Shown here piece after piece: positions 19,273-64,000 of a stretch of DNA of 64,000 bases. Within the stretch, counting starts at the first letter, position 1. Every line of letters starts with the position of its first letter. The DNA lies in NCBI RefSeq assembly GCF_910592395.1, contig NC_088309.1:22705923-22769922 (forward strand), read 5' to 3'. The notes beneath the pieces were generated by a model that worked only from the letters and a program-made list of their open reading frames with translations, had not been told where the DNA came from and searched no databases. The position numbers and the translations under genes were made by a program. The DNA is from Lineus longissimus. Its lineage: Eukaryota.

Positions 19273-22200
19273 CTATGCAGGTTTTGAAGATATCTCAAAA
19301 TATTTGGCAAAGTCTGGATTCCTTTTGATGTCCTCTAGTTGAACAACTGGCGTCATATCCAACTTTGAGTCAACTGGAAGTGCGCTTCTCTTCTGCACAC
19401 AACTGCGTGAAGCTTTCCAATCTTCTATCATTGTTCGCATGGTCTTAAGAGCCTTCAAGTTATCCTTTTGATTCTTAATCACTGTTGAATTACCTCCGTG
19501 AATCTTGTTGCCATGTCTCTTCACTTCATAACTTTCGTGCGAGGTAAAGATGCACTTGCTGCATTTGTACGGTCTCAGCTTAGTGTGATTAAAGATGAGA
19601 TGCCTCTTTAGAGAAGTCAGATTATAAACAAAGCTTTGGCAAAGATGGCATTGGAGTTGTTCAGATGGTCGTGCAGGGGCCTTCTTTTGGCGAAGTCTTG
19701 TAGTTTTAACTGGTACATTACTCGAAGAAGTGGTCATGGACTCCGTAACAACTTTCACCTCAACAACTGGATCTGATGTCTTTGTTGTGCTGGAGACAGG
19801 AACTACACTTTTAGTAACAGGAACCTTTGGGCAAACAAGAAACTTTGGGGAAATAAGCATCTTTGAAGCAGAAACCACCACTTTACTAGATGGACTAGCC
19901 ACAGTTTTTGAAGGTGATACTGGACTTGTCTCCAGAGAAACAGCAGGTTTTCTGGCTTTTAGTCCCTTCAGCTTTTGCTTGACCTTCTTTGATGATGATT
20001 TCGGCTCTTGCTTTATCTTCTTTGATAACGGTTCATCGTCAGAATCAGGTTGAGTATCTGCATCACCCCAAGCAGGTGGAACATCGAAATCATCTAGATC
20101 ATCATCTTCTTCCTTCCGTAGTTTACTTTGATCAGTTGCAGCTCCAGTAAAGCAAAGGTCTACATCAACCATCAATTGTTTTGAGACATGCACCTCCTTA
20201 TGGTGCTTCCTTGCCTCCACTAAGCTCGAGAATTTCTCTTTACAGTGCATACATATGCATGCATATGCCGGAGTACTAGGGAAGGCTTCAGGTACTGGGT
20301 CACCTGCATTCTCTGTATGAAACATTTCATCCAGCAGCAAGACCTCTCTTGCCAAGTCTTCCATCTGAGTGACGAGCATGATGTACGCCTTTGTTTCAAC
20401 AACATCATCATACTCTTCCTTTGACCCATGTATGAAGCGAACATGGCGATAGATGTGTTTGTCATTACTGTAGTCACAGTGAGCGCAGCGGTATTGCTCA
20501 ATATTCAGATGTTCCTGCACATGCTTCTTGAAAGCATCAATACTTCTAGCTGTATAGGAACACTTACTACATTTGTAGATACACGACCTGCCCGAGCTAT
20601 TTATACAAATTGCTCTGTAATGTTCTGGGACAGAAGCTGTGCTACCTTTGAGTAGCTCTCCTCTACGGTTTTGCTTGACGTAAGATTGTGTCAAGTAGCG
20701 CTCCAGTGATTTCTTAACGGATTTTTCCTTCACCTCAGTCACAAAGACCACGTCAGTTCTCCCTCGGAGTTCAGGGTGTTTGCTATTCACATGATCTTGC
20801 ACGGACACACGAAAACCCGACTCAAATGAACAAAATGTACAGGAGTACGGCTTAATTTTTGTATGGCTCACTAAAAAGTGCTGCCTTGCCTCTTTCCTTG
20901 TGGCACACCAATATCTGCAATGGATACAAATATATTCTTTGTGTACCAGGCTAGACTTAGATTTTTCACCAGATGTGGAATGTGTTACCTCAGGTGCTGG
21001 AGCAGCAGGAGGCTTTTTTCCCTTCATTTTCTTACTCGAAGCTAGGAGTAGAGCTACATCGGTCCCCTCATTGACTGCCACCTCAACAATCATATCACCT
21101 GCAGCCTTAGCCTGTTCATCAAAAATGTCATCCAACACATTCATTGCTTTCCTTAGTGTTGTGTCTGGACCGTGGCTAGTCAGATGTTTTCCTAAAAACA
21201 TTGTCGACAGAAATCTCGCCCCACAAAGACTGCATTCGTAAGGTTTGTATGCCAAGTGCGTACAGACCACATGGTTCTTGCTATTGCTGTAGCTGGTGCT
21301 ATACATATCGCACTGCTGACAGCGAAACACTTTCTTGTAGTTAGGTTGTTTAGAGGGATACCATCTTTGGTTGGAATTTGGTGTGGATGTGGACAGATGC
21401 GGTTCTGGTGTTGCAGAATATGGAGTGTCTTGACAAGCATATGAGGTAAAGGGCGATTCGGTTCGTGTAACCGGTGCAGTGGGATCAAATTTAGGAATGG
21501 GTTTCAGGGAATACTCCGGCGCTATCCTTCCACATGTCTTTAGAGTCGCTTCAATCCACTTCAGCTGTACTTCCGCCACTGCTTCATCCTTTATAATATC
21601 ATTAGAAAGATGGACTTCCATGGCATGGGAACTTGCCACCAGTTCTTGTTTAAAATTTTGCCCACATTTGCCACATTTATATGGAAATACGCTCGAGTGA
21701 AATGCCAGGTGTATGGCAAGTCCAGCTTTTCCACACGGTCCAAAGTTACAGAGTTTACAAAGTTCCAACTCTCTGCAGACCTTGGATTCCAAAAGTGCAT
21801 CAGGGAGTTGAATGGAGTTCTCCAAAACTAAATTCTGAGCATCCTTTTTCTGTTCCACCATCGATTCGTAGTCAGTTATGATGCCAGCTATCAGCTTCTT
21901 ATCATTTCCATGGGTTTTCTTTATGTGCGATACACAACCATGCTTATACGTATAGGAGTTATCACATCTAGCAAATGGACACTTGTGCGGCTTGAATGAC
22001 AGATGAAGGAACATGTGCTGGAGGAGAGCACTTGGCGTTCTACATGCAAAATGACAAATTTGACACAAGTGTGGCAAATCCATATCTGAAGGCAAAGCCA
22101 TCCTTTCTGCATAACCATTAAAGAGCAAAATATCCTTTCGCAGCAATTCAATGTCAGCCATTTGGAGTTTCTTCAAGTAAGTGTTAATTCGGACACTGAC

Positions 22201-23661
22201 CTTTGGGTTTTCGGCACACTCTTTTGATTCCTTGATATGATTATTGGCCAACAACTGAAGCTTGAACTGGCTTGAACATACGGAGCACTGGTACGGCGTA
22301 TAGCACAGATGGCTTGCAATATGTGGAGTTAAATGATAGACATACGGCTGAGGACCTGACCCACATACCATGCACCACCATTGAGAGGATGTCACATTGT
22401 CATTTTGCAGTCCGTCTTTCAGGAAATCCTTGCATTTTCTCTCTGTTACTTCAAGCATCATTTTGCGACTGCTGCTGTTTAAAGCAAAAGACTGCGGCTC
22501 TGCCTTGTGGCGATTCTTTGAGTGCAATTCAAGACCTCGCTTGTTGAATGCCTCCTTCCCACACAATAAACACATATATGCCATACAGCTGTAAGGGTTG
22601 TGATACTTTGAAACATGGATTTTGAACTTGTCCTCAGAGTTGGATTTATATGAACATTTATGACAAGTGTACACATACAAGCCAGATTGTACAGTAATTA
22701 GTTTAAGGGTAACATCTTTACTCGTTTGATCTTCTGTTTTTTTAACTTCCTTTGGCCTTTCTACAACCTTTTGGACTGGAGTGGTGTCATCTGCTTTGCC
22801 TATGGCGTGATCTTGAACTAAATGGTCTTCAATGTGCATGTATGTCTGCGAGATGAAAGCACAGCAAGGGCAGTGATAAATGTGCATACTCTTATGAATG
22901 CGCCACATGTGCTGTTCAAGCTCCATGGGACACATTGTCTCAAAAGTACAATTCCTACAACTATACCGACCGACAATATGTTTTTGTTGACAATGTGAGC
23001 ACTGAACCTTAGAAATATTTACAGCCAATGAACCAGGAGATGGATTGGCAGAACTTTTCTTTTCAGGCAAATGAAAAGTAGCCTGATGGGCCGCAACCTC
23101 TTTTAATTCATTGTGGGTGAAAGGACACCTCGAACACCTGTAAACACGCTTGTTATTAGTACCATGCAGTAAACTCACTACATTACCCGAGCCTGCAGGG
23201 GACATCTGCTGTATGACAACAGGACTCGGTACAACACTTTTTGCAGCGATAGCTAAAGATTTTTGAAAATTGTCTCTGGAGACATCAACAGAACTTTTTA
23301 GCTTTTTTTTCTCGACCCATGAAGTGACCTCTATATTGACTGCATCAAGTTTCTGCTCTTTCAAAGCAGCTTCAGCGCACATATAACCGGTCATTTGCTC
23401 AAGGTATGAGGCACATGCACTTGCCACAGAACTATCCGACTGATTTCTCAGGATTGTTTGCACTAGATCAGAATCATCAATGTTCACAGGAACACAGGGT
23501 TTTGTTGTCAAGTCCTCGAAATCTGGATCTAGCATGACCTCAAGGCCATCAATCATCATGGTGTTGCCAATAAGCGGAATATTCTGCTCAGTCATTGCCT
23601 CCTCAAGGCAAAAATAATCTGGGTGCGACACCATCCCAGTCATCATGTCAAGAGCTGCCAT
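19273..23661 (-). CDS. Large multi-C2H2 zinc-finger protein. The 1,462-codon CDS is uninterrupted and lies in a single exon.
   Basis: A 4.4 kb ORF with more than 20 CxxC...HxxxH C2H2 units (for example YRCAHCDYSNDKHIYRHVRFIHG and YKCSKCSYTARSIDAFKKHVQEHL). The start is placed at MAALDMM (gataagaaacagaaacATGG context), 18 codons inside the ORF. A ttccag| acceptor at ~23687 upstream of the ATG implies a spliced 5'UTR. Confidence 0.8.
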   Translation of the reverse strand: MAALDMMTGMVSHPDYFCLEEAMTEQNIPLIGNTMMIDGLEVMLDPDFEDLTTKPCVPVNIDDSDLVQTILRNQSDSSVASACASYLEQMTGYMCAEAALKEQKLDAVNIEVTSWVEKKKLKSSVDVSRDNFQKSLAIAAKSVVPSPVVIQQMSPAGSGNVVSLLHGTNNKRVYRCSRCPFTHNELKEVAAHQATFHLPEKKSSANPSPGSLAVNISKVQCSHCQQKHIVGRYSCRNCTFETMCPMELEQHMWRIHKSMHIYHCPCCAFISQTYMHIEDHLVQDHAIGKADDTTPVQKVVERPKEVKKTEDQTSKDVTLKLITVQSGLYVYTCHKCSYKSNSEDKFKIHVSKYHNPYSCMAYMCLLCGKEAFNKRGLELHSKNRHKAEPQSFALNSSSRKMMLEVTERKCKDFLKDGLQNDNVTSSQWWCMVCGSGPQPYVYHLTPHIASHLCYTPYQCSVCSSQFKLQLLANNHIKESKECAENPKVSVRINTYLKKLQMADIELLRKDILLFNGYAERMALPSDMDLPHLCQICHFACRTPSALLQHMFLHLSFKPHKCPFARCDNSYTYKHGCVSHIKKTHGNDKKLIAGIITDYESMVEQKKDAQNLVLENSIQLPDALLESKVCRELELCKLCNFGPCGKAGLAIHLAFHSSVFPYKCGKCGQNFKQELVASSHAMEVHLSNDIIKDEAVAEVQLKWIEATLKTCGRIAPEYSLKPIPKFDPTAPVTRTESPFTSYACQDTPYSATPEPHLSTSTPNSNQRWYPSKQPNYKKVFRCQQCDMYSTSYSNSKNHVVCTHLAYKPYECSLCGARFLSTMFLGKHLTSHGPDTTLRKAMNVLDDIFDEQAKAAGDMIVEVAVNEGTDVALLLASSKKMKGKKPPAAPAPEVTHSTSGEKSKSSLVHKEYICIHCRYWCATRKEARQHFLVSHTKIKPYSCTFCSFESGFRVSVQDHVNSKHPELRGRTDVVFVTEVKEKSVKKSLERYLTQSYVKQNRRGELLKGSTASVPEHYRAICINSSGRSCIYKCSKCSYTARSIDAFKKHVQEHLNIEQYRCAHCDYSNDKHIYRHVRFIHGSKEEYDDVVETKAYIMLVTQMEDLAREVLLLDEMFHTENAGDPVPEAFPSTPAYACICMHCKEKFSSLVEARKHHKEVHVSKQLMVDVDLCFTGAATDQSKLRKEEDDDLDDFDVPPAWGDADTQPDSDDEPLSKKIKQEPKSSSKKVKQKLKGLKARKPAVSLETSPVSPSKTVASPSSKVVVSASKMLISPKFLVCPKVPVTKSVVPVSSTTKTSDPVVEVKVVTESMTTSSSNVPVKTTRLRQKKAPARPSEQLQCHLCQSFVYNLTSLKRHLIFNHTKLRPYKCSKCIFTSHESYEVKRHGNKIHGGNSTVIKNQKDNLKALKTMRTMIEDWKASRSCVQKRSALPVDSKLDMTPVVQLEDIKRNPDFAKYFEISSKPA

Positions 23662-26214
23662 GTTTCTGTTTCTTATCTCCCACAACCTGGAACATAAGAG
23701 TACACATGTAATCAAAGTAATCTACTTCACGTAAGTCTACCTTCAAACATTACTTTATCAAGAGGGTCAACATGTAAACCAAGAGTTAAAAGATCTATTT
23801 GGATGCCAAAATACAATGAAAATACAATATTATGGTTAAAAAAACAGCGGTCCGGCATGAAGGCGGCAACAGGTCATCGGTCATGGTTCAGAGCAATTTG
23901 AACAGAAAGATTTCTACAGGCAATACTCATGCATGCACATGCTATAATCAGGAACTTGCACTGCAGTAAGCCCCATTACTGAAGGACTTAGCTATACGAC
24001 TTACCGAAAGACAATCACCAAGATAGGGTTTTTGTTATCCGCCCTACAGTTATGCCCATTGCTTCAACTCAACTGATTACCGATTCGTGACTCTGAAATG
24101 TAAAATAAGGCGGCTTTCAACAGCCTCCTCTTTGGCCTTTGAACACTCAAAAGTGAGCATCTTTGTTGTTAACTGTAGTAGCCCAACACTCAGACAACAG
24201 GCAAGTACCAACATCAAACATGTACAACTACAACCATGAAAATTAGGCCCAAAAAAGGTCATCAATTGACGAAATAAGTGCCATCTTACCATCATTTGGA
24301 ACGAGTTTACAATCCCCGATCACACACCAAAAAAAGGTCATCGGTTGACTAACGAAGCACCACTGTTCAATGGATTTATAGTTGAATTGAATGCGATCAA
24401 ACTACGTCATTTCCGATCGGGGATTGTACATTTTAACCCATCATTTCCCCTCAAAATACATTGTTCGGTAATAATATAAAGATTTGCATTTGGGGGTTCT
24501 GCCTGGTCTGCTCGTTAGTGCTTGAGCAGTTTGTTGACACACCCTGTATGTTCACACTCAGTCCCAGAGAGCAGCACATATTCATTGGCATTTTACGCCA
24601 GTTCAGAAGGGTACAGTGATGTCAAGTTATGTTACTTCTATGGACTAATACATAAACAGCAATAAAAATACCTTTCACTCACGATTGGACAACGATAACG
24701 ACGAAAAATACGTGTTATAGGATATAAAATTATTATCTTGGCTAATTTTTTTCATTTTCAAAAGGAACGATTCGACCGATTCCACCTTTGCCGTTATCCA
24801 TCCTCAGCATTTCCAGTCTGTACTGCTGTAAAACGGTCAGTAGCCGTTGTGACTGCCAATGACTAATAATTTATGATCAATCCTTGCGGGTTGTGACGGC
24901 TCCTTTTTTTCCTTTGAGTTTGCAGCACGTTTTTTCTTATATCGTATGTTCATGCATAGTTCTGACTCTGTAGCCAAATAGGGCATGGCGCCAGCAGCCC
25001 ATCCTGAGCAAGGGCGTAGCTGAGCCTTGGTTTAGGGGGGGAGGCTCTCTAATAGGGGGAGGAGGGGGGAAAAGGCTGTCCCCTTTGGAATGTTTGGTCC
25101 GTGGTGGGAGACAGAGGATCAGGCGTAAAATCTATTCTGCTACTTATGCTATTGCTAGTGAAACACGGAGGCCCATCCTGAACATCTGAGGAATCGCTTC
25201 TCCGGCCCTGCACAATCCCGGACACAAATACTTTGATATAATGGGCGCTTTCTTATAAGCTGAGGGGAAATGTCCCCGGCCTATAGACTCTTATGCAAGT
25301 CCCTTTGGTCATCCAGATCGCTTATTCCTCTTGTATATACCGCCGTGGGCAACAAGACGAAGTCGTTCCCCTGCCTCCGGAGTGTGCAGGGCCCGATATC
25401 ATCACCGGATATGAGCGAACGTCCAAACCCTGTCAAATTAATGGACTAGGGTTCTGGCCTGTCATGAAAGACATTGTCACAACCGACTATTCGTCCCGCT
25501 TTTGAATTTGAATTTGAATTTAAAAATATTTTTTAATTTCTAAAAGGTGGGGACCAAAAGTTACCAGGGAGAGAATTTTGATCTAGGGTCAAGTAATACC
25601 CGGGCAACTATTTCGCTCACCAAATTATAATGAAAATTACGTCGATCATCCTGTCATCACGCGATCGTCTGACCACATGGAAAATTCACCACACCAGCAC
25701 ACCAACTTTCAATTCATATTCCAAACTTCTCCGTTAAATTCTTTGATTTTACCACTTTTTCGCGACTAAAGACAAATTTTAGATGGTAAGTTCATAGATT
25801 AGGTATCGCAGCTCATTCATATTCCGATATTTTTGCGTTTCTTGTCTTTTCGGGGCAATGAAATTGAAAGGAGTTTTGTGCGGTTGGCCAAAATTTTGAT
25901 GATGGCGGCGTTCCCGCTACACCTGCGCGATGAGTTTTTTCATCAAAAAAACATCCGATTCTGTGTTACATGATACTCACCAAAGTGCCGGAGCCAGGTA
26001 TTCTTGTTCTGTGTGTAATCTACATTTTGTCAACTGAATTACGTGGAGATTTTTACCATTTTTGATGGCGAAAATCATGTTGAAACTGACCAGTCCAGTA
26101 CGGCCTCTTCGGCCATGTTGCATGCACGTGTTTTCTGTGTGCATTAACAACATGCATTGACTGTGTGTTGATCGTGCACTTGATTGCGGGAACAGGGCCT
26201 AGTACATGTAGTAG

Positions 26215-35185: not shown

Positions 35186-35800
35186 TCAGAGAGGACACAT
35201 CCGCGATGTGTCAACCTCGATTTTCACAAACAACGAGTCCTCCTTCAAATAATGTCTGGTTCGTATTGTCTCATGGGGGACAAATTTTGGGTATCCAAAC
35301 CCTAATGAATTGTCTTCCTTGCCTGGCTTTTGAAAATGCTTCCAGGATGGATCAGGTACGAAACTCTCCATGATATCAGTCCGGCTGTCTAATTTGGAGG
35401 TCTGATCAATCAGGAAGAAAGACACAGGCAACTTGAACGGCCATTCCAACAAAGTGTCATACTCCCCAGGAAGAAGTTTGATATACAATGAGAAATACTT
35501 CCCCTCCCCGGATCCGTTACCGTTCAGAAATGCGGATGCGATTAATTTGTATCCATAGCGACTAGTATAGAAAGGTTCACTCATGATTTCTAATCCAAGT
35601 TTCGATCTTGCCTCAGCAAGTTTCAGTTTATAGTCTGTGACCTTCCAAATGAAGACACCGTCCGTGACCTGAGATAAATTGTTCACCTTTGCACGTAGTG
35701 CATTGATCTGTTGCTGTTGACGACGGACATGTTTGCACATCATTGTCAGATGTCCTTTCGTATTGTCATCCAGGTGGCGCTCAAGGTTAAAGCGAGGACA
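35186..35800 (-). CDS. TRAF4: TRAF4 last exon: short coiled coil plus TRAF-C/MATH domain (CPRFNLERHLDD...SAFLNGNGSGEGKYFSLYIKLLPGEYDTLLEWPF...SLGFGYPKFVPHETIRTRHYLKEDSLFVKIEVDTSRMCPL, then stop).
   Basis: The MATH domain is near-identical to human TRAF4 in its hallmark blocks (SAFLNGNGSGEG, LLEWPF, SLGFGYPKF). The short coiled coil is typical of TRAF4. Acceptor tcatttcag|. Confidence 0.9.
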   Translation of the reverse strand, partial: CPRFNLERHLDDNTKGHLTMMCKHVRRQQQQINALRAKVNNLSQVTDGVFIWKVTDYKLKLAEARSKLGLEIMSEPFYTSRYGYKLIASAFLNGNGSGEGKYFSLYIKLLPGEYDTLLEWPFKLPVSFFLIDQTSKLDSRTDIMESFVPDPSWKHFQKPGKEDNSLGFGYPKFVPHETIRTRHYLKEDSLFVKIEVDTSRMCPL

Positions 35801-56034: not shown

Positions 56035-57587
56035 AGGACACTTACTTCTGAATGCAGCCAGGAACTTGTCTCAAGATTAAGTATAGTACATGCTGGCTTA
56101 CCATCTGATTCACGTCTCCAGATAATTTATTCTTTGTAGAAAGACGAGACACAAACCCCAGGTACATGTAGGCCTGGATGGTTAAAGCAGTGAACAGAAA
56201 TATAATTCATCATGGTTTACAGTGTCTTTCGTCTTTGGAATGAAACCGTTTAGGACTGATATTATCCAATACCAAAACATTCAGTGTACACTATCATGTA
56301 TAATTTTTTTGTAATTGTTCCACTTATCAGAAACCATTCCATTTGAAGAGGATGCACAATATATTTTCTGTTGCATTTTAGTTGTTCTACATTTATATAG
56401 ACTCTATTGTGATTATTTACCTTATTATCAGATGAACACAATGTTACTGTGTTGGAAGACTCGAACAACCTAGTTTTTCAGTATTATTGAAAACTGTCTC
56501 TTTCCTAGAAAAGGCCAGTTGGAAGGCTTGCCAGATTCTCAGTTAGCTGCGGAAATTTTTTTTCAGTAAGCTGCTAAATTGATTATCCTGGGTGACAATC
56601 TCGCCATTATCTGTAGCATGGCTTAGCTGCTTTCTAAAGCTTCTTTTAAATAAACGCAAACAGTACATTCATCTCATTCGATCATTGCTCATACATTAAG
56701 GGCCTTTAATTAAGCAATACCTATACATGTTTTACAAATTTTATAGGAATGTAGGCTTAGACATGACAAAACGGTGATACTGTATAGATATTACTACTGT
56801 TATTGTTTCTAGGCAATTGTTGCAAATAAAAGAGTAAATAGATCATTTATAGATGTTGTTGTCATTATGTGTAGAAGAGGACATCATCCAATATTTTATC
56901 TTGACCTGCATTTTGGCTGTCATCTGCCAAGTCACGATTTCACAACAGATAATTGCCCACTGTAACTGGTATCTGAACAAGATAACACCAAATCACATGT
57001 TCTATTTTACAATTTATTATGAAGTCATACAAATCTCAAGTTGATGTAATTTTTTAATACACAGCACAAAATATGGTGTAATCAGTGATGATCCAAATGG
57101 GCCTCAATTAAGTTCACAGATGCCTTGGGGAAAATGCATCGATTAACTAAAGCCATATGTTGGAAATCGAGGAGCATAGAAATTGAAATCATGGTGTGCC
57201 ACAAAAATGAAAGTCTCATTAAAGTGACAATGTAACCTCTTAATAGCGGACCCCTCTGTAAGCAGGAACCCTCTATTGACACCGTTTTTGTTCCCAAATT
57301 GGTCATTTCTATATGAGCTGACCGTAGCTATCAGGACACTTCCCTATCAGGACCAGCATTTTCAGTCCCAAGGGCGTCCTTAATAGAGAGATTCTACTGT
57401 AGTACATATACAGGGATGTCAGCACTGAATCAAAACTATACCAAAGTCTCAATTTTATAAAATGCTATGTTTTATGATAGCCGCAAATATCTCTTGGTTA
57501 ACAGTATTTGATAAATCAACACCAGAACATATAAAGAACTTGATACACTACGAGAATGGTACTTGCACCAATTTCATAAGAACACTT

Positions 57588-58030
57588 AACACCTTCAGCG
57601 CCGAACCACGTAGATCTACGCGGCCCAACCCCCCCCCCCCCCTCCCCTTTGAGCTGGTTTTCGGAGTCTCATGGACTTCATGAAAGAACTTGCGCCATCG
57701 CCATCTTCAGGGCAAGGTAAGAACTGTGTCTGAACTACGCCATCGCCATCTTCAGGGCAAGGTAGGAACTGAAAACTGAAAGACACAGTTCCTACCTTGC
57801 CCTGAAGATGGCGATGGCGTAGTTCTTTCATGAAGTCATAAAGTTCTGAACTACGCCATCGCCATCTTCAGGGCACGAGAGGCACTGAAAAGACCCGTTT
57901 GGTCTCTTCAGTCGCTACCTTGCCCTGAAGATGGCGATGGCGTAGTTCTTCCATGAAGTCCATGAGATTCCGATAACCAGCTCAAAGAGGGGGGATTTGG
58001 GCCACGTAGATCTACGTGGTTCGGCGCCGA
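57588..58030. mobile_element. Palindromic ~440-bp element with ~30-bp terminal inverted repeats (CACCTTCAGCGCCGAACCACGTAGATCTACG) and nested internal hairpins (GAACTACGCCATCGCCATCTTCAGGGCAAGGTAGGAACTG and its complement). Flanked by TTAA.
   Basis: The 5' end ...cttaa|caccttcagcgccgaaccacgtagatctacg and the 3' end cgtagatctacgtggttcggcgccgaggtg|ttaatgg were read directly. Poly-C tracts lie inside each TIR-proximal segment. Confidence 0.55.
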
Positions 58031-58699
58031 GGTGTTAATGGTAAATATAAACTCTTAACAATCACAGTAACATGCACTCTGGTTCATGATACAGCTGGCA
58101 CCACAGATCAACATCATCTCTATATCAGTATGCCGACTCAACCAAGAACCACCACCTTCTGCTGTGTCCAAACATGGAGGTATTATTAAGAAGGAGAGAG
58201 AACGGAGCCCGCTTCAAAGGATACAATCATCCTTCCGATGTTTGGACAACAATCCCTTCCAATACCCCGGCCGGCCGAGCGCGTTATGTCGGAAAGTATC
58301 GGAAACTGCCGAGCTAGTTTCCGAGTCGCGATCGGCAACTTCCGTGACTAATCGGCCATAGAAAGTAGCTAGAGAGAGGGGTGTGGCCATACTGCTTTTC
58401 CATACCTCCATGGTCCAAACAATTTACAAATGCTATAAAAGATTTTCCTCCCCGACCACACAGATGGGCATTCTCTGACAGGGGATTGTTATCCAGCTGC
58501 CTGTGCGAGAAGTTCAAGAGCTATGTACTACATGTAAGTACACAGAGTACATATACAATGTGAGTCCAAAGTTAATAGCAACCTGCTGAAGCGAAAGTCT
58601 AACTTACATTCATTGGACCAAGAAAATATTGCAAAAATCAGGGTGCTATTTTCTTCTGACCCAGACTGTATCGAATGTACTTTTGTACATAACTGTCAA

Positions 58700-58946
58700 T
58701 TACTTAGCAAACATCTGCATCTGATAAGGTTTCCTGAACCAAGTTCCAAAATTGGCATCAGCAAGATGTTGATGGAATACCTTCTTTGCCTGTTGATAAG
58801 GTTCATTCATTGTCTTTGCACTGGCATAAGTTTTTGCATCGTAAAGCTGCCGAACCTTTGCAGCTTTTGCTAACTCACGGAATCTGAACAAGAATCCTGC
58901 TTTGCTAATGCGACTTGCTCCAAATGCACTCGTCCTGAATGGAGAA
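58700..58946 (-). CDS. ADAR-family last exon (...FRFRELAKAAKVRQLYDAKTYASAKTMNEPYQQAKKVFHQHLADANFGTWFRKPYQMQMFAK, then stop).
   Basis: Matches the ADAR2 C-terminus ...[37 protein letters not shown]. Acceptor tttgcag|. Confidence 0.8.
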
Positions 58947-59168
58947 CTGCAAAAACAAAAGGTTCACGTTTTATATGGTCTTAAGAATCTACGGATATCT
59001 GTTCAATATACCGTTGTTTCATTACCCTTACAAATGCATCTGTCACGACTGACCTTGGGTGAGTCACTTACCCCAATTGCATTGTTCTTTGGATGAAACA
59101 TAACATTTCTTTGCCTAAGTGTCGGTTAAGTTAAAATCCAATTGCCAGAAGAAGAAAGATTTACTCAC

Positions 59169-59406
59169 GTTTCAACACTTTTACCAGTGCTGGTATCGAC
59201 TACTTCAATCTGGTTGTCACCATCTCCATGCATCCAGTTCACGCTAATTGTATTCACGATGGGACATTTCCAAGATTCGTCATATTTATTAATGGTGTCA
59301 AGTCGTGGGTGGTTCAGCCTAAAACCTGCTGGTAACGAGTCATTAATCTTGTCATCAACACGGCAGCAAAAAGCACGCGCCTGGTGTCCATGGTCAAAAT
59401 TCTGGC
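59169..59406 (-). CDS. ADAR-family exon 10 (GQNFDHGHQARAFCCRVDDKINDSLPAGFRLNHPRLDTINKYDESWKCPIVNTISVNWMHGDGDNQIEVVDTSTGKSVET-).
   Basis: Matches ADAR2 ...KAPNFSVNWTVGDSAIEVINATTGK. Acceptor cttttcag| and donor AC|gtgagt. Confidence 0.75.
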
Positions 59407-59542
59407 CTGAAAAGAGAAAACAAAATAAGATTATAGTGAGAACAATCAGGAGAGGAACAAAGATAACATAAGTATTGCATAGGAAAAGGATTGAGATAGA
59501 TGAATAGATACAGTAACAGAAATGAGATAATCTGTTACCTAC

Positions 59543-59728
59543 CAATAGTAACTGTCGACAAGTAGACAGGTTCAAGGAAGCAGCCAATGAGAGCCCCCTG
59601 GAGACCAAGTATGTTCCAGCTGAGGATCTTATCACTTGTTGACATCACAGTAATAGATTGACCGGCTTGGATGCTCTCCATGGTCGGACTAGGAATATCA
59701 CTCATACACACAGGTGAGGCCATTTGTT
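59543..59728 (-). CDS. ADAR-family exon 9 (EQMASPVCMSDIPSPTMESIQAGQSITVMSTSDKILSWNILGLQGALIGCFLEPVYLSTVTI-). STSDK replaces the conserved SCSDK.
   Basis: Matches ADAR2 [38 protein letters not shown]. ACA (Thr) occupies the second zinc-ligand Cys position. Acceptor ctttccag| and donor G|gtaggt. Confidence 0.8.
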
Positions 59729-59977
59729 CTGGAAAGTAAACAAATACGTTCTCAATGACTGAGTCAACACAATCAAGCAATCGACTTCATTGGAAAGAAA
59801 GGCAAAATGTGGCAATTTTCTCTTTTTGTTTTGGAGCCTCCAGTATCTCTCCCTCTTCTTGTACAACAACGAAACATATTTTGAGCCTATGAAAATAGGT
59901 CAACTTCAAATGTATGCTTCAGTAACCATTCAGACAGCTCAGGACTACGTGGTCCATGCCCAATGAAAAGCACTTAC

Positions 59978-60093
59978 CATTTTCAGACTTCAAAGACAGC
60001 AAGCCCATGAATTCCTCTCCTTCAGTAAAGTTGGGAAAGTGGGCACCTCCTTTGATCAGTTCCTCTTGCTTTTCATCCAGTGGGGCACTTGGT
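59978..60093 (-). CDS. ADAR-family exon 8 (EPSAPLDEKQEELIKGGAHFPNFTEGEEFMGLLSLKSEN-).
   Basis: Frame continuity from exon 7. Acceptor cattttag| and donor G|gtaagt. Corresponds to the variable loop region of the deaminase domain. Confidence 0.65.
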
Positions 60094-60337
60094 CTAAAAT
60101 GAACCGAGAAATTATCAGGATCTGGCTATGAATAAGTTTCAGCACATATTTCAGAGCCAAAAATGCCTTTATATTTGACCTGGACCCCTGCAGTTATATC
60201 TGCTTCACAAGAGATAGCGGATCAAAGATGAGTTCCAGAGCTCAGATAGTTTCAGAGAAGTCCAATCACATTTAGGCAACAAGATCAACATCAGTCTTTC
60301 TAAGATTAAAAAGTTTAAAAGCAGGAAAAAAACTCAC

Positions 60338-60508
60338 TCGTCGAGAAAAGCTGAAGCGTCTCCATACGGTGCATCGCTGATATATAGATGAATGGAGATG
60401 TTTGGTTTCAGGACAAGTTTAAAGCTGCCGGGTTTCTGATTGAACAAACTCGCTGACTTGCAAGCAGGTGGGCTCTCATAATACTCCTTGATCTTACGGT
60501 GGAAGTAT
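60338..60508 (-). CDS. ADAR-family exon 7 (RYFHRKIKEYYESPPACKSASLFNQKPGSFKLVLKPNISIHLYISDAPYGDASAFLD-). PYG replaces the conserved zinc-ligand PCG.
   Basis: Matches ADAR2 RFLYTQLELY...[24 protein letters not shown]. The codon TAT (Tyr) sits where Cys is expected, read on both strands. Acceptor gcttgcag| and donor GA|gtgagt. Confidence 0.8.
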
Positions 60509-60850
60509 CTGCAAGCAAATGTAACACTCAAATTGCAGGAAGGTTTTGAGAATGGAGACAAGACAATCCATGAACATAACACTCAAATTGCAGGAAGGTT
60601 TTGAGAATGGAGACAAGACAATCCATGAACATAACACTCAAATTGCAGGAAGGTTTTGAGAATGGAGACAAGACAATCCATGAACACAACACTCAAATTG
60701 CAGGAAGGTTTTGAGAATGGAGGCAAGACAATCCATGAACATAACACTCAAATTGCAGGAAGGTTTTGAGAATGGAGGCAAGACAATCCATGAACACAAC
60801 ACTCAAATTGCAGGAAGGTTTTGAGAATGGAGGCAAGACAATCCATGAAC
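60509..60850. repeat. ~60-bp tandem repeat, ~6 copies of aacactcaaattgcaggaaggttttgagaatggagacaagacaatccatgaacat. It abuts the acceptor of ADAR-family exon 7.
   Basis: Read directly. The last copy overlaps the intron 3' end (...tgtaacactcaaattgcagga), immediately adjacent to the exon start. Confidence 0.8.
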
Positions 60851-61021
60851 ACAACACAGAGAAGAGAAGATTATCTCATCAGTGTGTGACCCCTTCTTTC
60901 AATCGGGGTCTCCATCAATGCAAGCATACTCAAGCACTAGAAACTGAGAACAATGATATGCTGAGCTAACACCGATACCAACTAAAACAGCCATGAACTT
61001 GCCCACAATAAAGCTTCATAC

Positions 61022-61154
61022 CTTAGGAGTCCTCTCCTGGCAACAACCTCTGCATGACCATCTGTCAGACTTCTACCATCCGCACCCAGCCTGCCAGCAA
61101 ATAGACTTGAGCACCCCGTACCTAACGAGACAACATGGCCTCCATCTTTGTCAC
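61022..61154 (-). CDS. ADAR-family exon 6 (SDKDGGHVVSLGTGCSSLFAGRLGADGRSLTDGHAEVVARRGLL-), containing an intact HAE motif.
   Basis: Matches ADAR2 [37 protein letters not shown]. Acceptor ccattaag| and donor AG|gtatga. Confidence 0.8.
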
Positions 61155-61381
61155 CTTAATGGAAAAATCAAGATACTGAATTAAAGCGCAAGGGTTTTTA
61201 TAGATTTTAAACACATCACCATGACGAAACACTGCAAGCAATGTCTCCACAAAAGAAATTGACATGGCTAAGGGAGCAAGTCAACATTTTAAAGGGCTAT
61301 ATGTAAAGCTGTCCATTCCACAAAACTTGGACTTTTGGACTTACTGCCTTCTGTGTTTTCATGGCAGTATAGTGAACTTAC

Positions 61382-61523
61382 TCAGTTTCAACACAAATGC
61401 TGCCATAATTTTTCCACCCCAGAAATGGTTGGGACACTTTTTCAGAAGTTTTATATGTGTTTTGTGGCACATCAAAGCAATACTGTCGTGAAAGGTGACC
61501 TCCTCATCATCTCCAAATTGAAT
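61382..61523 (-). CDS. ADAR-family exon 5, start of the deaminase domain (IQFGDDEEVTFHDSIALMCHKTHIKLLKKCPNHFWGGKIMAAFVLKL-).
   Basis: Aligns with ADAR2 ...ADAVSRLVLGKFGDLTDNFSSPHARRKVLAGVVMTTG. Acceptor ttccttccag| and donor A|gtaagt. Confidence 0.75.
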
Positions 61524-61679
61524 CTGGAAGGAAAAATAAATAACTATGTCATTCCATCATAGTTGAAAGAAAATGAAAGAGATGTTATGTTCTAATCGGG
61601 ATCCATTTTTTAAATGTTACTTTGCTGCAGCAAATACCTGATGAAATACAGCTGCTGATACAAAAGCGCATATTCTCAC

Positions 61680-61806
61680 CTGGCCAGTTTGTAGTACAAC
61701 CAATGCTTGGCTGCAAGCAAGTTTCTTTGCATCTTTCTTGCTCTTACCGACACCAGACGCAATGGGTTTCTCTCTGATGATAATGGCAGCTGTGTACTGA
61801 GGCCTC
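61680..61806 (-). CDS. ADAR-family exon 4: C-terminal half of dsRBD2 (RPQYTAAIIIREKPIASGVGKSKKDAKKLACSQALVVLQTGQ).
   Basis: GxG.SKKDAK..A...AL dsRBM C-terminal motif. Acceptor ctcttgtag| and donor CAG|gtgaga. Confidence 0.85.
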
Positions 61807-62171
61807 CTACAAGAGGAATACAAATTTGGTTAGTCAGTTACCTGGATTCAATGAGATTATAGTCGTCAGATGTAATTTTTACATTGTTTTGTGCATTGCC
61901 GACTTCATTTGGAACCGTCAGTCTAGGAATAATAGATTTCAGAGCTCCTGTTGTAAGGAAAAATCTAAGAAAATACCAAAAAAAATCCCTTTAACTATGT
62001 GGCGGATGTTCTCATGTTCTTTTTTTCAAGCTCCAATGCTGACATGTACTGGTTCAGTGGAATTTTTGTTTTAATTCAGTTGGTGAATGGTGACAGTTGG
62101 CACTGGCCCTGAATTTGTTTCTCCAAGTTTCATGCAAACTGAGTCACTGAATGTTTCAGAACCATACTTAC

Positions 62172-62388
62172 TTATTTTCATCCCAACCATCATTTACTGT
62201 CAGAATATATGGCAAGTGGATCTTCTGACAATATTCCGATAACTTGCTGACAGGATTTGCCAACATTTCCATGGGAAGCGTCGCCAAATTCTGAGCTGTT
62301 ACTGGAGGTGGTAGAGGCCCAGTTATCGGAGTCTTTGAATCTAGTTGAACACACCGACCAAATGAATCGTATATCATAGTGTCACTCT
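62172..62388 (-). CDS. ADAR-family exon 3: N-terminal half of dsRBD2 (...NPVSKLSEYCQKIHLPYILTVNDGWDENK).
   Basis: Acceptor tatcacag| and donor AA|gtaagt (phase 2). Confidence 0.8.
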
Positions 62389-62739
62389 CTGTGATAAAGA
62401 CAACCCAAAGATATTAAACAAATAAGATGAGTCTAGAGTCTGCTTCTCAACAATATGACAAAGAAACCAATTTGTGGGAAGTTTTTAAGTTTGATATCAT
62501 GTAAATCAGAAGCAATTTATTACTTGGGATAAGATTCATACATCAGTTACATCTAGTTGGCTGCTGCCTTTTGTAAGCAAGCTATCAAGAGAAGACTGTC
62601 GCATTCAACCATCACTAGAAAGACATTAACATTACTGTGATTACAGGCAGGCTATATTTCTGACCAACAGAATTAGCTAGGGATGGGGAATTGCTCTTGG
62701 TATTGAAAGAAAGTTCAACGAAAAACCAATCAGACTTAC

Positions 62740-63087
62740 CCCCTTCATCTATATCATCATCTTCAATGCCCAAAATGGCTGTGAAAGCCAACTTTGCTGC
62801 CTCAGTCTTGGCATCTTTCTTAGTAGGACCAGTGCCCTGAGGGTATGAGACACCATTCACTGTACAAACGCTAGCAAACTTGGCTTTAAATGAGGGCCTC
62901 TCCACACAGACTTCACGAAACGATGTTTCTGCTCTCACCATGGACGAATATTCCATGATTGCACTGACTGGGTGCTTGGCTCCATTGAGAAATGCTTTAA
63001 TGAGCTCTGGTGGCACTTTCTTTGGGGTATTTCCCTTCTCAATCAAGCCTGGTGGCGGTTCCATTTCCACAGGACGTGGGGTAAGAC
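62740..63087 (-). CDS. ADAR-family exon 2: complete dsRBD1 (PVSAIMEYSSMVRAETSFREVCVERPSFKAKFASVCTVNGVSYPQGTGPTKKDAKTEAAKLAFTAIL).
   Basis: dsRBM consensus (PVS.L.EY...GP.H...F.....V.G..Y..G.G.SKK.AK..AA..AL..L). Acceptor ccccatag| and donor G|gtaagt. Confidence 0.85.
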
Positions 63088-63340
63088 CTATGGGGAATAG
63101 GAGGTTAAGAAATATTACAGCTTTGAACCCCCAATTCAATATACTGACATGAACAATGTAAATATTAAAGCTTAGACAAAACTACATCTTGAGGCAAGGT
63201 AATTTGTCCACTAGGCCCAACTCATCTAATTACCCATCTCTATAACACTACAGAGTAAGTAAGTAATTACCTAAACTTTACTGATTCTTTATAATGATGC
63301 CCGATGTCAACAAGAAAGTACGGGTAGTTTAACTAAGTAC

Positions 63341-63737
63341 CTGGAATATATTTTTGTTCGGCTCTCCTTCTCTCCGCCTCCCTCTTAGCATCTCTATGTT
63401 CCTTGAAAGGCACCTGTGCCTGTCGTACAGCAGTAGCCAAAGGATCAGTATCATGTCTCCGCAGACCCTCAGTCCTGGCAGCCAAGGCATACTGGAACGC
63501 CATGTTTGACTGCTTGGGCTGGGCTGGCTCTGGTGTTGTCTGAGCTGATCTTTGCTCCAAGATTGGAAATTGCCGATATTGTGGTCCAGCTTCTGCAACT
63601 GGGTCTTCTCGTGCCTGTCCCCTTCCTCTTCCACGACCAACGGCTGTCAAAACTTTCGGTTGCGACTGAGGCAAGCGGATCCCACTGCTTTCATTGGTGT
63701 ACTGGTAAACGTCTTCTTTACCAAAACCTCCCGACAT
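63341..63737 (-). CDS. ADAR-family (adenosine deaminase domain / dsRBD) protein, exon 1. The N-terminus has an RG repeat (MSGGFGKEDVYQYTNESSGIRLPQSQPKVLTAVGRGRGRGQ...).
   Basis: ORF 63333..63737(-). Donor CCA G|gtactt (phase 1) joins in frame to the dsRBD exon. Confidence 0.75.
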
Positions 63738-64000
63738 TTTCAGATCTCTTCACCTTAGACCTAGGAGTAGGACAAACAATACCAGAGCATAAATATTCCG
63801 ATTCGATCGCTGCAGGCTTAGGCTATTTGTTATCAACGAGATTTTTGGTTGTTGCATATTTTTATTTTTTGTGGCCACTTTGAAAGAACACTTCGGCTTT
63901 GCCGCAATATCTGCACGTTGTCGTTGCAAGTAGTGTGCAGACCGAGACCGGGGACGAGAGGGGAAACAGGAAAATTCAAATTGTGTATGACGATTTCACG

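Follow-up and report, generated by a model that had tools for sequence, protein, structure and literature searches.

An ADAD-like gene of Lineus longissimus predicted to encode a catalytically inactive dsRNA-binding protein of the ADAR family

In this study, we found that the minus strand of the window (the whole 64-kb stretch of L. longissimus DNA that was analysed) carries a functional, intron-containing animal gene of the ADAD/ADAD1-like branch of the ADAR family, a real but ordinary one. The best explanation of its product, which the sequence makes probable, is that of a catalytically dead dsRNA-binding pseudo-enzyme that would act as a competitor or a scaffold. The gene was rebuilt manually from the raw sequence and has 11 exons between 63737 and 58700 (exon 1, 63737-63341; exon 2, 63087-62740; exon 3, 62388-62172; exon 4, 61806-61680; exon 5, 61523-61382; exon 6, 61154-61022; exon 7, 60508-60338; exon 8, 60093-59978; exon 9, 59728-59543; exon 10, 59406-59169; exon 11, 58946-58700), with 773 codons followed by a TAA stop at 58702-58700. 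All introns are of the GT-AG type, the 20 splice sites are all canonical, and the frame of 2,322 nt is open throughout. The exon blocks were recovered independently by tblastn with the ADAD1-like protein of Gigantopelta. A preliminary description of this DNA had also given a product of 773 aa, and the three exons that it listed (61022-61154, 60338-60508 and 59543-59728) match the rebuilt model exactly.

Of the three side chains expected to coordinate the catalytic zinc, two are replaced. The HAE motif (61048-61056, minus strand) is retained within DGHAEVVARR, and its H444 and E446, the zinc-ligand histidine and the proton-shuttle glutamate, align to H910/E912 of ADAR1 and H394/E396 of ADAR2. 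The first catalytic-zinc cysteine (C451 in ADAR2, C966 in ADAR1) is replaced by Y503 in APYGDA, with the codon TAT at 60366-60364, and the second (C516 in ADAR2, C1036 in ADAR1) by T581 in MSTSDK, with the codon ACA at 59639-59637. In a HMMER alignment to solved structures, Y503 stands under the cysteine of 'APCGD' in ADAR1 and 'SPCGD' in ADAR2, and T581 under that of 'MSCSDK', both within highly conserved blocks. In an alignment of 147 sequences, the flanking columns of P502, G504, S580 and D583 are conserved at 90% or more and K584 is invariant. The intact HAE and both substitutions with their codons had been read in the preliminary description, which on this ground proposed an RNA-binding pseudo-enzyme of the ADAD/TENR type; our reading of the letters bears it out. 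As two dsRNA-binding domains (dsRBDs) are present and HAE is kept while both catalytic-zinc cysteines are replaced, the protein is predicted to be an RNA-binding pseudo-enzyme, and we infer that it would be unable to deaminate adenosine. Since HAE persists here, whereas most mollusc relatives lack it, the inactivation may be recent, or the site may have kept some non-canonical role.

The decay extends beyond the zinc ligands. The base-flipping loop G487-E488-G489 of ADAR2 corresponds to a degenerate E551-Q552-M553 (59721-59978, the E551 codon spanning intron 8), and residues 549-558 of this loop have a pLDDT below 50 in the AF2 model. In the alignment to ADAR2, the RNA contact R510 is changed to S, and T375/K376 to C425/S426. 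The TWD motif, which we take to be part of the ADAR2 dimerisation helix, reads TME in the same alignment; given this role, the change would argue against inhibition through heterodimers of the ADAR type.

The fold that carries this site is well preserved. The adenosine-deaminase-like domain (aa 373-773, exons 5-11, 58703-61496) was delimited by Pfam, PDB match and AF2, and the Pfam family A_deamin (PF02137) covers aa 420-765 with an E-value of 4e-79 over profile positions 1-329 of 329. The AF2 model, which is confident for both dsRBDs and the deaminase domain, fits the ADAR1 deaminase domain 9b83_A at a TM-score of 0.91 (normalised to the ADAR1 chain) and an rmsd of 3.0 Å. Among PDB matches, human ADAR1 (E 8e-80, 34% identity) is ahead of ADAR2 (E 2e-39). 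In the alignment to ADAR2, the positions of 11 ligands of IP6, as listed in PMC10278661, are conserved (R400, R401, K519, W523, K629, Y658, K662, Y668, K672, W687 and K690), while R522 is changed to S and S531 to A. The domain also has the residues of a second, structural zinc site as defined for ADAR1 (PMC7550611): H530 (60041-60039), C626 and C627 (59368-59363) and H645 (59311-59309) align to H988, C1081, C1082 and H1103, forming a putative metal site. This HCCH site is absent from ADAR2-like sequences. The fold had earlier been called ADAR2-like; the ADAR-family fold stands, but the PDB E-values and the second zinc site bring the domain nearer to ADAR1.

The order of parts is a disordered N-terminus with GRGRGRG, dsRBD1, a linker, dsRBD2 and the deaminase domain. 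Residues 1-150 are predicted to be disordered, with a pLDDT below 50 at residues 1-101, and the GRGRGRG repeat, already noted in the preliminary description, lies at aa 34-40 (63618-63638). The repeat is identical in a related species (contig L001), in which the surrounding N-terminal motif is conserved too, and its counterparts are GRGIGRG in Lingula and RGG in fish ADAD1. A YIPGLTPRP motif (aa 130-138, 63071-63350), split by intron 1, stands just 5' of dsRBD1, and a sequence like YIPGLTxRP occurs also in brachiopod and mollusc ADAD1-likes. By Pfam dsrm and AF2, dsRBD1 spans about aa 157-240 (62765-63016) with a KKDAK RNA-binding motif; it has the alpha-beta-beta-beta-alpha fold at a pLDDT of about 90, and the region matches the dsRBDs of TARBP2, PKR and E3. 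In exons 3-4, dsRBD2 (aa 292-361, 61686-62260), with a SKKDAK motif, consists of helix 294-304, three strands and helix 344-360 and matches the third dsRBD of ADAR1 in Foldseek. Pfam dsrm reported two stretches (E 7e-23), of which the best is 294-356, together with DSRM_2, and the KKxAK RNA-binding motif is kept in both domains. Two dsrm matches were also found in the lophotrochozoan ADAD1-likes of Lingula, Haliotis, Gigantopelta and Potamilus. The two-dsRBD layout and the RG repeat had been presented as distinctive of this gene, but both also occur in ADAD relatives.

Tree and profile comparisons place the protein inside the ADAD/'ADAD1-like' clade, which goes further than a likeness to ADADs. 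In a neighbour-joining (NJ) tree it falls into a clade of 36 sequences with a bootstrap of 72, with vertebrate, tunicate, echinoderm, hemichordate, amphioxus and mollusc members; inside this clade the tree is weakly resolved (bootstrap 21-31). The domain scores 413-424 bits against ADAD profiles, versus 332 for ADAR1 and 298 for ADAR2, an advantage of about 90 bits over the ADAR1 profile, and the ADAD profile was built without this protein. The invertebrate ADAD profile gives 424 bits, against 304 bits for the profile of vertebrates and tunicates. The best full-length relatives, with 40-45% identity, are annotated at NCBI as 'adenosine deaminase domain-containing protein 1(-like)' from Lingula, Haliotis, Gigantopelta and others. 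Over the full length, nothing in the protein libraries searched exceeded 45% identity, and therefore the lineage is not yet represented there. Lingula ADAD1, the closest by score, retains an intact active site and is placed by the NJ tree, without support, outside the ADAD clade. The features are those of an ADAD-like protein, with two of three ligands lost, two N-terminal dsrm matches and, at E ≤ 0.01 in Pfam, no Z-alpha family; the full ligand set, the Gly-Glu-Gly loop and the RNA contacts of an active ADAR are missing, and of the ADAR1 features the second zinc site is present and Z-alpha is not. The ADAD clade was described by Rosani et al. 2019 (PMC6651903) and Zhang et al. 2023 (PMC9989829), in which ADAD is reported as catalytically inactivated and found in protostomes and deuterostomes. 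The Lineus gene is a further member of this already described invertebrate ADAD-like family.

The invertebrate ADAD1-likes of Lingula anatina (XP_023931666), Haliotis rubra (XP_046583472) and Gigantopelta aegis have the same order of parts as the Lineus protein, an N-terminal RG and/or YIPGL motif and likewise the ADAR1-type second zinc site, while their catalytic residues are lost in varying ways. The catalytic triplets are HAE/PYG/STS in Lineus, YAV/PEG/SCS in Haliotis, TAI/PDG/SAS in Gigantopelta and HAE/PCG/SCS, that is intact, in Lingula; the ADAD1-like of the tunicate Styela, with HAE/PKG/SGT, resembles the Lineus protein in keeping HAE and losing both cysteines. Vertebrate ADAD1 (TENR) and ADAD2, members of the same NJ clade, combine an N-terminal dsRBD with an inactive deaminase domain, from which both catalytic cysteines are likewise gone (PKG and SAS-SAT). 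They differ in having one dsRBD instead of two, in the loss of the second zinc site (SNQQ or SKQK against HCCH) and in the loss of the glutamate of HAE (HAV, HAI), and their expression is germline-restricted with a role in fertility. Human ADAR1 (PDB 9b83) is the closest solved structure to the domain, but its Z-alpha domains, its three dsRBDs and its complete catalytic site set it apart: the Lineus protein has no Z-alpha match and lacks C966, C1036 and the GEG loop. To the decay patterns of the group, the Lineus protein adds one in which HAE is kept and the two cysteines have become Tyr and Thr.

Inactive ADAR-family regulators are also known outside ADADs. ADAR3 (ADARB2) and ADR-1 of C. elegans have two dsRBDs and modulate editing through substrate or partner binding (PMC7360552). 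ADAR3 is of the ADAR2 lineage, with all catalytic residues in place and an N-terminal arginine-rich R-domain. The Lineus domain, by contrast, has its lowest score with the ADAR2 profile, has lost the catalytic cysteines and carries the HCCH site of ADAR1; the RG repeat of the protein is shared with ADAD relatives. An identity with ADAR3 was rejected on the profile score and the lost cysteines; of the earlier comparison to ADAD1, ADAD2 and ADAR3, the ADAD part is strengthened to membership. A squid member of the ADAD-like family itself, the sqADAR/D-like protein of Doryteuthis pealeii, with two dsRBMs and the changes C451S, C516A and E396A, was shown experimentally to have no deaminase activity and to inhibit sqADAR2 (PMC10278661). 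By its published description, it has lost the proton-shuttle glutamate, while the Lineus protein keeps HAE.

As a working mechanism for the ADAD-like product, the dsRBDs would bind structured RNA, and the dead deaminase module may serve as a stable interaction platform. One outcome would be that the protein competes for substrates with active ADARs, as shown for squid sqADAR/D-like and ADAR3; another would be scaffolding of RNP complexes, as with vertebrate ADAD2 and RNF17. For mouse ADAD2, the authors proposed a scaffold that brings RNF17 to P-bodies, an interaction for which the dsRBD is dispensable (PMC10040813).

A narrower version of this reading can be put forward tentatively, in which the protein would be expressed mainly in the gonad and have no part in editing regulation, with the dead deaminase domain organising RNA granules or the piRNA or translation machinery. 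In it, GRGRGRG would be a methyl-arginine ligand for Tudor-domain partners. The grouping with ADADs in the NJ tree and profiles, the proposed recruitment of the Tudor protein RNF17 by ADAD2 and the conservation of the RG repeat with its surrounding motif in the related species, where exon 1 alone has a dN/dS of 0.14, are all consistent with it; against this, the link between RG and Tudor is our own proposal and is not known for any ADAD.

The locus is very unlikely to be a unitary pseudogene in decay, derived from an ADAR1-like or ADAD-like enzyme, with the active-site changes as the first signs of neutral decay. The loss of catalytic and RNA-contact residues while HAE survives could mean a recent loss of constraint, but dN/dS against the related species is about 0.13 at a dS of about 1 for exons 1-2, and as measured on these exons the gene is under purifying selection. 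The frame, open across 11 exons with every splice site canonical, the confident AF2 model and the selective retention of the buried IP6 and second-zinc ligands and of the dsRBD KKxAK motifs argue against it too. Least credible of all is an active ADAR, whose Tyr and Thr codons would be errors of sequencing or assembly, or whose real transcript would draw on other, cysteine-bearing exons. In its favour, TAT is one base away from TGT, HAE is intact and Lingula has all the catalytic residues. However, T581 is not a single-base error, since no base of ACA agrees with the Cys codons TGY. Both exons are flanked by canonical splice sites and correspond to the exon blocks of relatives, and a tblastn search with relatives in all six frames of the 64-kb window found neither alternative copies of these exons nor a second ADAR gene. 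The EQM loop, R510 to S, T375/K376 to C/S and TWD to TME are independent decay not explicable as a point error, and losses of this kind are seen in other members of the clade.

Within the 'ADAD' orthogroup, a fully intact active site is found in Lingula, Branchiostoma and several unnamed transcripts, and many lineage-specific decay patterns are found elsewhere. Perhaps the orthogroup was not ancestrally dead; we would give an even chance to a history of repeated, independent inactivation, with selection in invertebrates maintaining the ADAR1-type structural zinc site as well as the IP6 core. If this is true, the Lineus locus would show a pseudo-enzyme at an early-to-middle stage of its evolution, and the label 'ADAD1-like' may be wrong for some invertebrate proteins that are still active editases.

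The ADAD-like gene of Lineus longissimus occupies the minus strand from 63737 to 58700. The raw sequence was read at 58000-64000 and the exons were assembled, giving 11 exons (63737-63341, 63087-62740, 62388-62172, 61806-61680, 61523-61382, 61154-61022, 60508-60338, 60093-59978, 59728-59543, 59406-59169 and 58946-58700) with GT-AG at all introns and an open frame. The product, here called the window protein, has 773 aa; this length and three exon coordinates in the preliminary description matched the rebuilt gene exactly. The motifs listed there were all located as well, namely GRGRGRG at the N-terminus (aa 34-40), an intact HAE in DGHAEVVARR (H444, E446), PYG in APYGDAS (Y503, codon TAT at 60366-60364, minus strand) and STSDK in VMSTSDKILSW (T581, codon ACA at 59639-59637, minus strand). 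Pfam returned the claimed domains, with two dsrm stretches for the two dsRBDs and a full-length A_deamin match (aa 420-765, E 4e-79).

HMMER alignments to solved structures placed both substitutions under Cys ligands of the zinc, as had been claimed: Y503 shares a column with the Cys of ADAR1 'APCGD' and ADAR2 'SPCGD', and T581 with the Cys of 'MSCSDK', and by residue count their equivalents are C966 and C1036 in ADAR1 and C451 and C516 in ADAR2. The catalytic zinc has three protein ligands in ADARs, and the window protein has thus lost two of them. The TAT codon differs from TGT at one base, and ACA shares no base with TGY. Alternative or mutually exclusive cysteine exons, an objection that the preliminary description had raised against itself, were ruled out, as tblastn of four relatives, covering the whole window in six frames, gave no matches outside the 11 exon blocks of the model; the same search found no tandem ADAR paralogue or second ADAR gene in the window. 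It is confirmed that the feature is real and had been read correctly.

The family set came from searching 1.84 billion cluster representatives exhaustively, and no full-length relative in it was more than 45% identical; the word-index protein searches gave just 4 and 15 matches and missed close fragments. The best relatives were Lingula anatina ADAD1 (44%), Haliotis rubra ADAD1-like (43%) and Potamilus (42%), and a word-index search added Gigantopelta ADAD1-like at 40%. Further ADAD1-like relatives came from molluscs (Tegillarca, Pinctada, Aplysia, Physella, Littorina) and deuterostomes (Branchiostoma, Acanthaster, Lytechinus, Saccoglossus, Styela). The relatives from the hemichordates Ptychodera and Glandiceps carry the NCBI name 'double-stranded RNA-specific adenosine deaminase-like'. 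Vertebrate ADAD1 was also among the relatives, and ADAR1 orthologues ranked after the ADADs.

When 158 deaminase domains were placed in a neighbour-joining tree, the window protein fell inside a 36-member ADAD clade (bootstrap 72) together with vertebrate, tunicate, echinoderm, hemichordate, amphioxus and mollusc ADADs; within this clade resolution was weak (bootstrap 31 for the window protein with molluscs). The window protein was left out when the profile HMMs were built; it scored 413-424 bits for ADAD, 332 for ADAR1 and 298 for ADAR2, and leave-one-out controls on known ADADs gave the same pattern. The position of Lingula ADAD1 among the ADAR1s in the tree was not counted against orthology, since its bootstrap was 5 or less and the N-terminal motifs and dsRBD1-linker sequence are shared; its ADAD profile score was slightly above its ADAR1 profile score. 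Rosani et al. (2019, PMC6651903) described ADAD, ADAR1 and ADAR2 clades in lophotrochozoan phyla and followed 4 ADAR homologs through 14 genomes, so that ADAR1 and ADAR2 paralogues with the canonical catalytic residues would be expected elsewhere in the present genome. Zhang et al. (2023, PMC9989829) reported that the ADAD of both protostomes and deuterostomes is 'catalytically inactivated' and the sister of ADAR1. These phylogenies agree with the ADAD placement found in our comparisons, and the sister relationship explains the ADAR1-like features of the window protein. A reading of GRGRGRG as an ADAR3-type R-domain was ruled out by the clade, the protein being an ADAD with the ADAR2 profile lowest.

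AlphaFold2, run on a 20-sequence alignment, gave confident models of dsRBD1 (about 159-238), dsRBD2 (294-360) and the deaminase domain (373-765). The first 150 residues were predicted to be disordered, and outside them confidence was low only at 536-558, the 5'-binding and flipping-loop region. The deaminase fold had been called ADAR2-like, but it is closer to ADAR1, because ADAR1 leads both in Foldseek (against human ADAR1 9b83_A the rmsd was 3.0 A and the TM-score 0.91 when normalised to that chain, versus a TM-score of about 0.86 for ADAR2) and in sequence (E 8e-80 versus 2e-39). ADAR2 residues from the list in PMC10278661 were transferred through the 5ed1 alignment. The IP6 ligands were kept at R400/R401 (R450/R451 in the window protein), K519 (K584), W523 (W588), K629 (K707), Y658 (Y732), K662 (K736), Y668 (Y742), K672 (K746), W687 (W761) and K690 (K764), and were altered at R522 (S587) and S531 (A596, Ala in ADAR1 as well). 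Park et al. (2020, PMC7550611) described a second, ADAR1-specific zinc site formed by H988, C1081, C1082 and H1103; in our alignment all four residues are kept, as H530, C626, C627 and H645. The KKxAK motif is present in both dsRBDs (TKKDAK and SKKDAK). Elements on which catalysis on RNA depends have decayed: the flipping loop G487-E488-G489 of ADAR2 is E551-Q552-M553, R510 is replaced by Ser, and T375/K376 by C425/S426. The TWD motif, which we take to be part of the ADAR2 dimerisation helix, reads TME; if that role is right, ADAR-type heterodimerisation would be disfavoured and substrate competition would be the likelier inhibitory route. The predicted picture is that of a pseudo-deaminase that still folds, with IP6 and the second zinc as stabilisers, unlike a broken gene.

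The active sites of the ADAD-like members were compared at the HAE, PCG and SCS positions, in this order. The window protein reads HAE, PYG, STS, whereas all three elements are intact in Lingula anatina ADAD1 (P0020/P0169; HAE, PCG, SCS, with TWD also present) and Branchiostoma lanceolatum ADAD1-like (P0025/P0172; HAE, PCG, SCS, with SWD instead of TWD). The other members read HGL, PCG, SCS (Ptychodera), NGL, PCG, STS (Acanthaster), HGV, PVG, SAS (Lytechinus), YAV, PEG, SCS (Haliotis), TAI, PDG, SAS (Gigantopelta), TCL, PDG, SQS (Aplysia), HAE, PKG, SGT (Styela), HAV, PKG, SAS (fish ADAD1, Osmerus) and HAI, PKG, SAT (frog ADAD1, Mantella). The tunicate Styela thus shows the same pattern as the window protein, HAE with both Cys gone, and Acanthaster and Littorina share its Thr at the second Cys position. 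Intact sites stand beside many independent decay patterns in the clade, and the Lingula and Branchiostoma lanceolatum proteins may be catalytically competent; the ADAD label is thus no guarantee of inactivity. The window protein, together with the intact Lingula and amphioxus members, supports a stepwise and repeated inactivation within the clade. Across the 158-domain alignment, the H-C-C-H of the second zinc site is kept in nearly all invertebrate ADAD-like proteins, lost in vertebrate ADAD1, tunicate and sea urchin, and absent in ADAR2-like sequences.

The two-dsRBD layout and the N-terminal RG repeat had been regarded as distinctive, but both are known in relatives. Two dsrm stretches were also found by Pfam in the Gigantopelta, Lingula, Haliotis and Potamilus proteins, while heterobranch gastropods and deuterostomes have one. 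The squid sqADAR/D-like combines two dsRBMs with a dead domain (C451S, C516A, E396A), and experiments showed that it lacks deaminase activity and inhibits sqADAR2 (PMC10278661). RG or RGG also occurs at the N-terminus of Lingula and fish ADAD1. Judged by these sequences, none of the flagged features (active-site pattern, two dsRBDs, RG) is new for the ADAD family. The N-termini of the window protein and the relatives P0169, P0172, P0028, P0029, P0021 and P0022 share motifs outside the known domains, which may be docking motifs. The first, '(D)xFYQxS...(L)RLPxSxPxV' (aa 7-30, 63719-63648), is also found in amphioxus and hemichordates and more weakly in Lingula. The second, 'YIPGLTxRP' (aa 130-138, 63350-63071), stands directly ahead of dsRBD1 in lophotrochozoans, whereas in hemichordates 'IPGL' is placed after it.

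The only close relative found was an environmental contig, L001 (JGI metagenome 3300040954, Ga0451425_044040, 3830 bp), carrying exons 1-2 of the orthologue of a related species, which a prokaryote-style method had called as two 'hypothetical proteins' reading through into introns. The exons are 82% (exon 2) and 72% identical in nucleotides, and the introns are not alignable. Over the 246 codons of exons 1-2, to which the comparison is limited, the Nei-Gojobori dN/dS was 0.13 at a dS of about 1, which shows purifying selection on the N-terminal third of the window protein. A pseudogene is argued against and is unlikely, because this low ratio is joined by conservation of GRGRGRG and the neighbouring motif in the L001 species, an open frame and canonical splice sites. 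No deaminase exons of that species were recovered; the full-protein metagenome scan was empty, though it also missed the IEDDDIDE-bearing L001.

Several other features were observed in the window. In intron 6 (60522-60857), a tandem array holds 6.1 copies of a 55-bp unit with 98% identity (TRF score 630); on the minus strand it directly precedes exon 7, ending about 14 bp from the acceptor of that exon. Some 650 bp beyond the stop codon, at 57573-58051, nested inverted repeats (arms of 22-51 nt, 73-100% complementarity), with a perfect 40-nt hairpin at 57732-57825, look like a MITE/foldback-type element or palindromic satellite. On the minus strand, an unbroken 1,480-aa ORF at 19273-23715 with many C2H2-like zinc-finger motifs probably represents a large zinc-finger gene with a single exon, its Pfam matches (zf-H2C2_2 and the seventh C2H2 finger of ZNF462) being weak and below curated cut-offs. 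A 185-aa ORF at 35186-35743, also minus, matches the TRAF/meprin MATH domain strongly (E 5.5e-43) and is probably the exon that codes for the C-terminus of a TRAF-family protein.

We presume that the window protein would lack A-to-I activity, that its dsRBDs would bind structured RNA, and that the dead deaminase domain would serve as a stable platform. It could compete with or regulate active ADARs, as do the squid ADAR/D-like (PMC10278661) and ADAR3 and ADR-1 (PMC7360552). It could also scaffold germ-cell RNPs, the two modes being non-exclusive; ADAD2 has been proposed as an RNF17 scaffold, with the dsRBD dispensable for the interaction (PMC10040813). It is speculative that GRGRGRG serves Tudor domains as a ligand through methylated arginines.

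This is not a new kind of system, as the class, the two-dsRBD form and the inactivity are already published. It adds a lineage of dead ADAR relative with no full-length match above 45% in the protein libraries searched, and one pseudo-deaminase in which the kept (IP6 and second zinc sites) and the lost (catalytic zinc and flipping loop) are clearly split. It shows which parts of the fold are still selected after catalysis is gone, namely the core that binds IP6, the structural zinc site of ADAR1 type and the RNA-binding motifs of the dsRBDs, and it bears on the origins of pseudo-enzymes and on whether an invertebrate 'ADAD-like' annotation can mean 'inactive'.
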